A DNA stretch of 64,000 nucleotides from positions 16,678,001-16,742,000 of the forward strand of contig OX597826.1 in the NCBI GenBank assembly GCA_951406725.2. Reading direction: 5' to 3'. The DNA comes from Octopus vulgaris. Its lineage: Eukaryota. How positions within the stretch are numbered: the stretch's first letter is position 1; each line of letters begins with the position of its first letter. The translations under genes were made by a program, and so were the position numbers. This document shows positions 30,099 through 55,917 of the stretch, piece after piece. The notes under the pieces are model-generated. The model searched no databases. It saw only the letters and a program-made list of their open reading frames with translations, and was not told the DNA's origin.

Positions 30099-30240
30099 TT
30101 TCCATCTTTCTTTCCTTTCCAGAGCGTCTAATAACACTATACTTGTTCCACGTGCTCGCGTTCTTGTGTTTGCTCTTTATTCCTGTTTAGATTAATTATA
30201 TATATATGTTTGCATTAACTATATATATATATATATATAT

Positions 30241-30375
30241 TCAGTAAAAGCAATTAAGATTCAAGTGAGTTCCAATGAATTCACATGAATGAGGTACTTA
30301 ACTTAGATGCACCAGAAATTTATATGGTATTAACCATAAAATATGGGGTGATTATAAACAAGAAAAAAGCAACAT
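30241..30375 (-). mobile_element. Tail of the hammerhead-bearing repeat at 54244-54478
   Basis: Reverse complement TGTTGCTTTTTTC...TAATCACCCCA...TATGGTTAATACCATATA...GGTGCATC...ATTCATGTGAATT...CACTTGAATC matches 54344-54470; both end in (TA)n. Confidence 0.8.
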
Positions 30376-43187: not shown

Positions 43188-43455
43188 AAAAAGATGTATT
43201 GCAAATCATGAATATATTTTCAGGAACAGGGATAATTTGAGTAACAAATTTATATGGAAGTTAAAAGATAATAAATTGCATGAGCTTAAATGGCAAATAT
43301 TTAGTCATGCTATATCTTATTAAATTGCTGATAACGGCTGTAACGTTTGTGTGGAGAAAATATATCAAATTTTAACATGAAAAGAGAAACCTCTTAATGC
43401 CATACAGGAATGCGTTTAATCTTGTAAACACTTTAAAATATGTGTTTAGAAAATA
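43187..43455 (+). mobile_element. Penelope-like GIY-YIG endonuclease C-terminal remnant
   Basis: KRCIANH...NKFIWKLK...LKWQI...CNVCVEK...PLN...SCKH follows the PLE pattern KxRxxNH/LSKxIWxLK/IKW/CNLCxxEK/LN/CxH. Confidence 0.7.
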
Positions 43456-53380: not shown

Positions 53381-53564
53381 ATCCCAATATTGCTTCACAA
53401 ACGTTTTAGCAAAAACACGTCGTCCACTGATTAATTTACAGGAATAAATGAGAATTATTGAAAGTACATCAAATCAGAATAAATAAAATGATTAAGAACA
53501 ATAGCAAGGATAACAGGCTTGCACTTTTCTCGTCTGTTGTTTTCTAATTTTAGTTTAACCACCC

Positions 53565-54087
53565 ATGAACAGTTTATGTTCTTCATTCAGAGGTGGAGCG
53601 TGTTTGTTTTGTACTTACACAAAATTTTCCTTTTTGCTTCGGTAGAATAGATACATAAAATTTTATATTATTTTAAAAACTAACCATAATTAATGTTGGT
53701 AAACATTTATTTTTAACTAATCGCCTATTGCTGAAGCCAATCAGCCGTTGGGAAACAAACGTTAGACCTTTAGATCTTCTTGCAACCAGCTTCAAAACGA
53801 GCATTAATAATTGTGTTATTTAAGACATAAAACTATTTGCTTCAACGCTAAGTCATAATAGATTTAAGCAATTAGCCAGAAGAGATAAAGTATAGGATTT
53901 CATTATTGTTTAAGGGATTGTTTATTTGCTTTCAGTACACTAGTTCATGTGGTGAATATACAATACGATTTATATTAAATATTTTAGTAGTTGACTTTTC
54001 GAAACCGATGGAAGAATGTTCCGATTCGCCTGTCGGTGCCCTAGGGTATTATGATTCGTTTAGAAATACTAGTTCCCAGTTTAAAAG
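53565..54087. repeat. Left arm of ~520-bp inverted repeat (right arm 57981-58519)
   Basis: GAGCATTAATAATTGTGTTATTTAAGACATAAAACTATTTGCTTCAACGCTAAGTC is the reverse complement of GACTTAGCGTTGAAGC...ATTAATGCTC at 58215-58270. Confidence 0.92.
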
Positions 54088-54101
54088 CAATATATATATA
54101 A

Positions 54102-54178
<77 letters not shown>

Positions 54179-54243
54179 AAAAATTATCTTGTATAGTGGC
54201 ATTTTCAAACTTCTTTTGATGTTTGGAAATCTCTGATGTTTTT

Positions 54244-54327
54244 TCGGCTGACGAGTACGAGCAATCTATATTTACTGCAACATTTGTAGCTTATTAAATA
54301 TGTCCTCGTACGAAACAATTGTACCGA
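54244..54327 (+). ncRNA. Type I hammerhead ribozyme, complete consensus core, long stem II
   Basis: TCGG-CTGACGA(54248)-GTACGAG-43 nt-CTCGTAC-GAAA-CAATTG-TA-CCGA; stem I TCGG/CCGA, 7-bp stem II base, palindromic stem III ACAATTGT, predicted cleavage after A54323. Confidence 0.85.
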
Positions 54328-54477
54328 TATTTTAATCCATTCTTGTTGCTTTTTTCCTATTTGTAATCACCCCACTTGTCGTATGGTTAACACCATATAG
54401 ATTTCCGGTGCATCCTAGTTAAGGACCATATTCATGTGAATTAGTTAGAATTCACTTGAATCTCAATTACTTAAACC

Positions 54478-54553
<76 letters not shown>

Positions 54554-54751
54554 ATATATATATGCCTGCATTTATACATATAGATATATACGTATGTATA
54601 TATATATGCTGCTACTGCCATTTCAGCTACTGACCATTCGAACACATAAGACAGCTATTATACTTACTCCCCACAAAAAGACAACCACGTGGATTCTGTT
54701 GAGACCAGTAAGAAACAATTATGAACTTTTTTATAAGACTTAACTTTTTAA

Positions 54752-54804
54752 AATATTTTTGATAAGGTTCGTTTTTTCAAGAAGAATCGAAATATGTAAA
54801 ATTT
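54752..54804 (+). ncRNA. Degenerate hammerhead motif
   Basis: ATTT-TTGATAA-GGTTC...GAATC-GAAA-TATG-TA-AAAT; two substitutions in CTGATGA; downstream AAATTATCTT(A/G)TATAGTGGCATTTTCAAACTTC is repeated at 54181. Confidence 0.5.
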
Positions 54805-54889
54805 CTAAGAAAATTAAAAATTATCTTATATAGTGGCATTTTCAAACTTCTTTTTTATCAATATATATGTATGTATGTATGCATATGTG

Positions 54890-55014
<125 letters not shown>

Positions 55015-55029
55015 TGCATTCATTTGTAT

Positions 55030-55259
55030 GATTTTGTGTCTGTTTCTCCGCCCACCAACACCGTTGCTTGACAACCGATGTTGGTGTGTTTACGTGTCCG
55101 TATGGTAGCGTTTGGGCAAAAGAGACTGACAAAATAATAACTAGGCTTACACAGAATAAGTCCTGGGTTCGATTTATCGGCTAAAACACTTTAAGGCGGT
55201 ACTCCATCTTAGCCGCTTTCAAATGACGGAAAAACAAGTAACGGAATAAAAGAATGAAA

Positions 55260-55262
<3 letters not shown>
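55030..55262 (+). mobile_element. SINE family A 3' half
   Basis: GCTTGACAACCGATGTTGGTGTGTTTACG...GGCAAAAGAGAC...AGAATAAGTCCTGGG...AAGGCGGTACTCCA. Confidence 0.8.
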
Positions 55263-55300
<38 letters not shown>

Positions 55301-55374
55301 TATATAGGGTGAGTTTACGAGAAAAAAAACAAAAGACGAAGACAGGTGGTATATATACATACATGCATGAATAA

Positions 55375-55465
<91 letters not shown>

Positions 55466-55917
55466 AGATTCACTGGAAGATCATGGCCAAGTGTAAGCCT
55501 TACACTAACGGCAGTGGCAAATGCCGTCTTTGCGATATGGAATGATGGCTCATCTGGAAAACACCATAAGATTCGCTACATGTCTAAATTCTTAAACTGA
55601 ACTTTTTGGGACATGTGCACTTACAAGACCTTCATATGTCTTAAAATATCTTATGCATTTCTTATATATATTTTATTGCTTTATATATATTTCTGTATAT
55701 TATTTTTTACCCTTTTAAATGTGCAACTTATACGTGTGTAGTATATACTTAATATATATATGCGTGCATATATACATGTGCACGAATGATGGTATATATA
55801 CGAGTGCAAGACTCTACATGTTCTACTTGTCTCCTCCCTTCGTGCATATATGTATATACGTTTATATATCTGCAAGTGTTGATGTATTTGACAGACAGGC
55901 AGGTGTATTTATGTACA

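Follow-up and report, generated by a model that had tools for sequence, protein, structure and literature searches.

The stretch of DNA analysed here, called the window throughout, comprises 64,000 nucleotides of the Octopus vulgaris genome (contig OX597826.1, positions 16,678,001 to 16,742,000). It contains a type I hammerhead ribozyme motif with an enlarged stem II arm, carried by a short element that lies between runs of (TA)n. The features of the locus, in positions of the window, are as follows.

54090-54176, no strand assigned: (TA)n run on the 5' side
54213-54478, + strand: 5'-truncated 3' end (pseudo-LTR and tail) of a retroelement assigned by its motifs to the Hydra clade of Penelope-like elements (PLEs), 266 nt
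54244-54327, + strand: type I hammerhead, from stem I to stem I, with the predicted cut between 54323 and 54324
54244-54247 and 54324-54327, + strand: stem I, TCGG paired with CCGA, as read from the sequence
54248-54254, + strand: core CUGACGA (C3-A9), CTGACGA in the DNA
54255-54311, + strand: stem II arm of 57 nt, made up of a 7-bp base, an internal loop, a short helix and a terminal hairpin
54255-54261 and 54305-54311, + strand: 7-bp stem II base, GTACGAG paired with CTCGTAC, enclosing 43 nt
54293-54298, + strand: ATTAAA hexamer on the arm's 3' strand, 25 nt ahead of the cut, a putative poly(A) signal
54312-54323, + strand: GAAA core, stem III palindrome ACAATTGT and GUA cleavage triplet
54312-54315, + strand: GAAA core
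54315-54322, + strand: stem III palindrome ACAATTGT
54324-54360, + strand: region 3' of the cut, containing the conserved ATTCTTGTTGC / U-rich tract, up to the first fixed insertion end (about +35)
54361-54478, + strand: 118-nt tail, matching the next ORF's 5' UTR, up to the second fixed end (about +155)
54479-54607, no strand assigned: (TA)n microsatellite, the insertion target, at the 3' junction

The motif is a real hammerhead of type I: CUGANGA, GAAA and the NUH triplet follow one another in order, and stem I is the open stem. A type I descriptor scan of the whole window returned this single match, whereas 300 dinucleotide-shuffled windows gave six looser matches and none with a stem II of at least 7 bp. 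A chance origin is rejected, since no such match arose in any of the 300 shuffled windows or in any of 15 shuffled sets of genomic loci. A preliminary description of this DNA had proposed that the core is complete, the stem II arm 57 nt long and stem III palindromic, all of which holds at 54244-54327 by sequence, descriptor scan and shuffles, and the further hairpin that it placed inside a 7-bp stem II base is recovered, together with that base, in the fold of 54230-54345. The span it had assigned, 54244-54478, holds for the ribozyme only as far as 54327, the remainder (54328-54478) being the rest of a transposon end. The fold of 54230-54345 is of ordinary stability (z -1.19), and 26 of 200 shuffles do equally well.

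Comparison with the Rfam hammerhead covariance models, a check the same description had suggested, gave a divided result. The whole window has no match at the gathering score, and a search of 53400-55700 at E<=10 found no hammerhead, just miRNA matches driven by the microsatellite. When a 121-nt stretch is submitted alone, all 45 positions of RF00163 (Hammerhead_1) are aligned around a 47-nt insert, and because of this insert the score, 16.5 bits (E 0.13), stays under the cut-off of 34. A degenerate hammerhead-like string at about 53727-53765 (+ strand), with CTGAAG, a short CCAA/TTGG stem and GAAAC, failed the type I descriptor.

The element that carries the motif matches other genomic copies from 54213 to either 54360 or 54478, with (TA)n beyond, and is 93-95% identical over 54213-54478 to the ends of ORF-bearing copies at loci L131 and L065. 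The window copy has no ORF. Its five differences from the modal sequence all fall within the arm (54263, 54280-54282 and 54299), where they weaken the inner helix; stem II, taken in context, has a predicted probability of 0.07; the modal copy L002 reaches 0.95-0.99, and divergent subfamilies also give low values. A second fragment of the focal superfamily, at 30235-30374 (- strand) between TA runs, consists of the tail only and has no hammerhead, and therefore the window offers no partner hammerhead in cis. The window copy is probably inert unless read through by a host transcript.

Several further repeats surround the element. A 39-nt stretch occurs with 97% identity at the 5' junction (54179-54217) and again about 340 nt past the 3' end (54816-54854), and is possibly flanking DNA copied during insertion repair. 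Two decayed fragments, each from the GIY-YIG C-terminus of another Hydra-like family, lie at 55462-55615 and 43237-43440 (both + strand; 76% DNA match to locus L221, tblastn E 0.004), and a dispersed repeat common to several unrelated loci, presumably akin to an octopus SINE-like repeat, occupies about 55060-55240 (+ strand).

The family to which the window element belongs, hereafter the focal family, was searched for in the species' own 2.8-Gb genome. There were 1129 first-look candidates, and the 40 scored among them are 94-100% identical. An exact 15-mer around stem III occurs in 965 genomic copies, part of them from a sister family, and an exact 19-mer in 603 + 5, which places the number of exact focal copies at 600 or more. 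Focal copies share a 3' end, have varied 5' cut points and are mostly short, while longer ones carry reverse transcriptase (RT) motifs, an Asn-rich linker, CNCRIKSKC (CxCx5C) and GIY-YIG upstream of the hammerhead. Unbroken ORFs of 947-1091 codons are present at L131, L132 and L163-L165, with a hammerhead before and/or after them. In the full element one hammerhead precedes the first ATG by about 230-300 nt and another follows the stop at a distance of 1.2-1.5 kb; the two are separated by 4623-4650 nt in L163 and L164, and the unit measures 4.6-4.7 kb; the tail sequence of 54361-54478 continues into the ORF in L131, L132, L163 and L164. The motif had been likened to the hammerheads of Penelope pseudo-LTRs, and copies with an RT/GIY-YIG ORF indeed carry the same end.

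On the basis of its motifs, we place the focal family in the Hydra clade of PLEs, which is defined by RWK, DKT in place of DKG, CxCx5C and the lack of CCHH (in the clade definition of PMC8557442). A single ORF with RT plus GIY-YIG at its C-terminus, as in endonuclease-bearing (EN+) PLEs, is found in L131, L132 and L163-L165 and is missing from the truncated window copy; the family also has pseudo-LTRs from partial tandems, inverted 5'-truncated copies and a tail at one end. The RT motifs include RWR in L131 and L132, RWK in L163-L165 and DKT in all five, and the N-terminal GxKF/Y is absent. The CNCRIKSKC linker occurs without CCHH, a single Cys lies within the GIY-YIG core, CQLC and CIH/CVH (CxxC and CxH) surround the conserved E and N, and insertions sit in (TA)n. 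Only the usual Hydra size of under 3 kb, which is not diagnostic, departs from this pattern, given the 4623-4650 nt between hammerheads and the Asn-rich insertions. Pfam matches to ORF fragments were weak and under cut-off (RVT_1 E 7e-4, GIY-YIG E 4e-4), and two full-length focal ORFs gave no Pfam match at E 0.01. A Naiad PLE, with an N-terminal GIY-YIG and no canonical hammerhead, is rejected, the focal GIY-YIG being C-terminal and the hammerhead complete.

The ORFs of L131, L132, L163 and L164 (950-1070 aa) have two long Asn-rich insertions, and the 42 homologues of the focal ORF are mostly about 650-790 aa long; one labelled Octopus sinensis shows 70% identity over 40% of the query. At L131:5500-6420, A>G and T>C changes are over-represented in contigs from two sequencing runs guessed to be RNA (34/54 in X1 and 30/42 in X14), compared with 12/45 in X15 and 17/63 in X8. 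Such an excess would be in line with A-to-I editing of double-stranded RNA formed by inverted copies, though alleles may also account for it.

The long arm is a stable property of the family. Copies chosen to cover a range of endonuclease similarity (100% to 69%) have arms of 56-63 nt throughout, and the long arm persists in subfamilies only 55-70% alike; in a distant sister family, GTAC/GTAC at the stem II base has become GCAC/GTGC and the arm still measures 53-60 nt. Covariation of the stems among genomic copies had been named beforehand as a test, and stems I-III do covary across subfamilies. In 21 hand-picked focal copies spanning the subfamilies (29 pairs, 609 cells), 92.1% of cells are paired and 7 of the 29 pairs show double changes. 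The covariation score of 0.213 exceeds the shuffled value of 0.169 (0/500), a test inflated by relatedness, and the slid controls (0.083 or less). Several of the compensatory changes come from one lineage or one copy: the stem I changes C-G to U-A and G-C to A-U occur in six copies each, within one lineage, and stem III has one double change, from ACAATTGT to ACGATCGT, which preserves the palindrome. In an independent prediction by RNAalifold, stem I, the base of stem II and the terminal hairpin reappear, and neither stem III nor the middle of the arm, where pairing is poor (pair 28-66 is unpaired in 14 of 21 copies), is predicted.

Among seven copies that are 55-92% alike and represent subfamilies A-D, invariant columns number 6/7 in the first core strand (just N7 varies), 10/12 from GAAA to A17, 17/43 in the arm, 16/144 upstream and 58/109 in the tail. 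The arm is therefore more constrained than the upstream sequence and less so than the tail. Judged from these alignments, it is demonstrably under constraint in active lineages. The arm lies outside the catalytic core, and hence is not expected to block catalysis.

Enlarged, conserved stem II arms recur as a variant in several repeat families of this genome. A strict hammerhead scan of 878 kb of collected loci, which overlap and are enriched for the families searched, gave 199 matches in 12 clusters, against none in 15 shuffled sets. Nine of the clusters lie outside the focal superfamily, seven with arms of 49-97 nt and two with arms of 14 and 31 nt. Genome searches with three other long-arm families returned 1359, 814 and 438 first-look candidates. 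One of these three, with an unrelated 55-nt arm, ends a second Hydra-type ORF (44% identity in the RT and 33-35% in the endonuclease); no ORF similar to the focal one was found in the other two, the L135- and L160-type families (15 loci each, 1.5 kb flanks). Scored against Rfam genome-wide, 6 of 73 candidates exceeded the cut-off, three being 108-nt long-arm motifs and three short. The idea of a long-stem-II class is thereby borne out, both by retention across subfamilies and by recurrence in other hammerhead families.

Individual unrelated type I hammerheads were noted at L010:-120, L038:-2970, L051:-2761, L063:-6999 and -6436, L134:-311, L135:-2833, L160:+387/+822, L216:-2632 and L224/L225/L228:1501-1608, with arms of 43-97 nt and palindromic stems III of 8-10 nt, and three of them represent high-copy families. 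At L210:2-1066 (+ strand), an intron-less frame of about 355 codons (Pfam FXMRP1_C_core, E 5.6e-7) runs straight into a tandem pair of 435-nt hammerhead-bearing repeat ends followed by (TA)n, and has the appearance of a fusion between a retrocopied fragile-X-related mRNA and a PLE-type end.

How the focal hammerhead might act can be approached from predicted folds and from the copies themselves. In six copies, the predicted cleavage-competent monomer fold lies 3.6-7.9 kcal/mol above the minimum free energy, and the stem III hairpin has a predicted probability of 0.04 or less. A palindrome duplex between two copies is predicted at -5.8 to -10 kcal/mol, and stem III is predicted to form only as an intermolecular duplex (-6.4 kcal/mol). 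Since the monomer fold and the stem III hairpin are disfavoured and the duplex is available, the predictions make weak cleavage, assisted by dimerization or by protein, the likeliest mode; that the modal focal sequence is truly active appears probable.

Past the cut, 603 of the 608 exact 19-mer matches continue with C and four more continue after a substitution, leaving one copy that stops at the cut (L174), a fragment of about 20 nt with unrelated flanks. As read from these junctions, focal copies were demonstrably made from RNA running through the cut site. In 30 copies taken in positional order, 23 of them focal, the focal insertions end at about +31 to +42 (12 copies), at about +150 to +164 (10) or at +120 (one), and each of the 11 separate inverted insertions among 19 locus rows has one short and one long end (11/11). 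Read-through of the cut combined with two fixed ends is what internal initiation on uncleaved RNA predicts. There is a precedent in the Anolis carolinensis element Poseidon (Frangieh et al. 2024, PMC11167929), described there as using two internal RT start sites, as shown in vitro, and an unprocessed RNA template; by analogy we infer that each of the two focal ends marks a point at which RT started internally on uncleaved RNA. The same read-through sequence would also arise from a circular template formed by religation.

Taken together, these observations are best explained, with a probability of roughly 80%, if the window holds the 5'-truncated 3' end of a Hydra-clade PLE inserted in (TA)n, whose enlarged-arm pseudo-LTR hammerhead likely cleaves just weakly after A54323, as a dimer or with the assistance of protein. 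The full element has one hammerhead before and another after an RT/GIY-YIG ORF, as pseudo-LTRs, and weak self-cleavage after A54323 would require either a dimer joined by the stem III palindrome or assistance by the protein that the element encodes. RNA that passed through the cut site served as template for new copies, reverse transcription presumably starting at internal sites about 35 or 155 nt past the cut and being primed at nicked (TA)n, as the end points and the anole analogy suggest. The long arm would be compatible with catalysis and is constrained in active lineages.

A second reading, which we regard as possible though doubtful, is that the arm holds a working poly(A) signal and that the folded hammerhead switches the RNA between cleavage and polyadenylation near 54323, self-cleavage, and read-through to the RT starts. 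The hexamer A[AT]TAAA occurs in the arm of 127 of the 128 distinct copies examined, flipping just between ATTAAA (77) and AATAAA (50), and ends 24-29 nt before the cut; we rely on this motif count in place of column invariance (2/6 in seven copies), which indels distort. The two hexamers are common signals, and together with a downstream U/GU-rich tract they are features of a poly(A) site; such a tract follows the cut and is conserved across subfamilies, but may instead be an RT-binding site. Across 16 hammerhead families, a hexamer lies within -40 to +30 of the cut in seven, five of them at exactly +6 (2.4 expected, P ~0.005), in a post hoc test on possibly related families; it is absent from the other nine. 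The sequence is AT-rich, moreover, the A run can pair inside the arm, and templates for genomic copies have to read through the hexamer. Contigs of four sequencing runs gave no listed pile-up of starts or ends, and among the 24 rows listed none had a poly(A)-like loose end, a result that weighs neither way on cleavage or polyadenylation. The broader version of this reading, in which the PLEs of this genome carry an overlooked, thousands-strong set of long-armed type I hammerheads (43-97 nt), linked to polyadenylation in the arm or behind stem I and switching among polyadenylation, cleavage and read-through, we consider unlikely.

The hammerhead fold may alternatively be kept as a structural or protein-binding element, for RNP assembly or RT positioning, and hardly cleave in vivo. 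The read-through described above fits this role, as do contigs that span the cut site in the runs guessed to be RNA; the Poseidon study further describes core mutants that leave insertion unaffected and no reads that end at the hammerhead cut (PMC11167929). All catalytic core positions and the NUH triplet are nevertheless fixed across lineages only 55-70% alike, as selection on catalysis predicts, and the anole motif does cleave, only with protein, in that account. We hold this reading to be improbable, a little more so than a poly(A) switch at the focal arm.

Retrozymes had also been invoked in the preliminary description; those of the metazoan non-LTR kind are described as tandem repeats without coding capacity, about 150-300 bp long and delimited by hammerheads (PMC7761336). 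The small size of the window copy, its lack of an ORF and the shortness of most other copies would suit such a non-autonomous unit of short tandem or circular RNA, but the same sequence ends ORF-bearing units of 4.6-4.7 kb, the copies combine a common 3' end with varied 5' cut points, and no tandem arrays of 150-300 nt of the focal family were present among the loci examined. Retrozyme membership is thus largely refuted and has very little probability left. Least probable of all is that the host has taken over the window copy as a regulatory ribozyme at its locus. The core and the bases of the stems are intact in this copy, but it is about 95% identical to the modal sequence, as expected of a young neutral insertion, and its private changes weaken the arm.

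The role of PLE hammerheads is still open, as it is presented in PMC8557442, PMC7761336 and PMC11167929. The focal family offers a natural gradient of copies, 55-100% alike and including unbroken ORFs and both pseudo-LTRs, on which core, stems, arm and the two putative RT start points can be tested jointly. Searches built on short loops undercount such hammerheads, as indicated by 6 Rfam matches over cut-off among 73 scored candidates, compared with more than 600 exact focal copies. Should the hexamer of the arm work as a poly(A) signal, a ribozyme fold would be linked to the choice of 3' end in a retroelement; should it not, what remains is a known transposon motif in a structurally altered version, with the window copy as an inert remnant among hundreds. 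In the open-access literature, we found no description of long-loop cephalopod hammerheads.

With the Hydra PLEs of Craig et al. (2021, PMC8557442), as characterized there, the focal family shares a single ORF, a C-terminal GIY-YIG, RWK-like and DKT motifs, CxCx5C, the lack of CCHH, insertion into (TA)n and, close to the 3' end, a type I hammerhead with a self-complementary stem III of 3-4 bp; ACAA/TTGT with a GUA cut is listed in File S2 of that study for Penelope-2_NV. It differs in its loop II, 43 nt as opposed to 3-10 nt in each of the 26 Hydra entries in File S2, in its size (a 4.6-4.7 kb unit with Asn-rich ORFs of 950-1070 aa, where Hydra elements are generally under 3 kb) and in its tail of about 118 nt, compared with the 30-40 nt described for PLEs. 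The octopus family listed in that study, Hydra-1_oBim (also Hydra-1_Obim) of Octopus bimaculoides, is a different one, with an unlike hammerhead sequence and a loop of 8 nt.

The minimal, dimeric PLE hammerheads of Cervera and de la Pena (2014, PMC4209133) are likewise located in pseudo-LTRs, with a helix II of 7-8 bp, a helix I of 4-5 bp, palindromic positions of helix III around loop 3, many solitary truncated copies and a predicted low, dimer-dependent activity. The focal motif is set apart by the lack of an extra base between A9 and G10.1, a palindrome half that is longer, at 4 bp, and the large structured insertion in loop II. Hammerheads in such pseudo-LTRs, the 7-bp stem II base and the palindromic stem III are thus already known. 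A helix II of 7-8 bp in these published motifs also runs counter to the statement that PLE hammerheads normally have a short stem II, and the claim of an atypical stem II stands for the enclosed 43-nt loop, which is the difference, while the 7-bp base is normal for PLEs. Enlarged loops 2 of 35 and 29 nt also appear in File S2 of PMC8557442 for the two spike-moss elements PLE-X1_sMoe and PLE-X1_sTam, where they are flagged as deviating from the canonical structure; these are endonuclease-less plant elements that target 28S rDNA, and represent two isolated cases rather than many high-copy families.

A mechanistic parallel comes from Poseidon (PMC11167929), which shares with the focal family two fixed ends downstream of the hammerhead, an uncleaved RNA template and AT-rich targets. 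Poseidon belongs to a different clade, however, and its start sites are described as lying inside the ORF, 30-40 nt apart, whereas the putative focal start sites are both located upstream of the first ATG, about 120 nt from one another.
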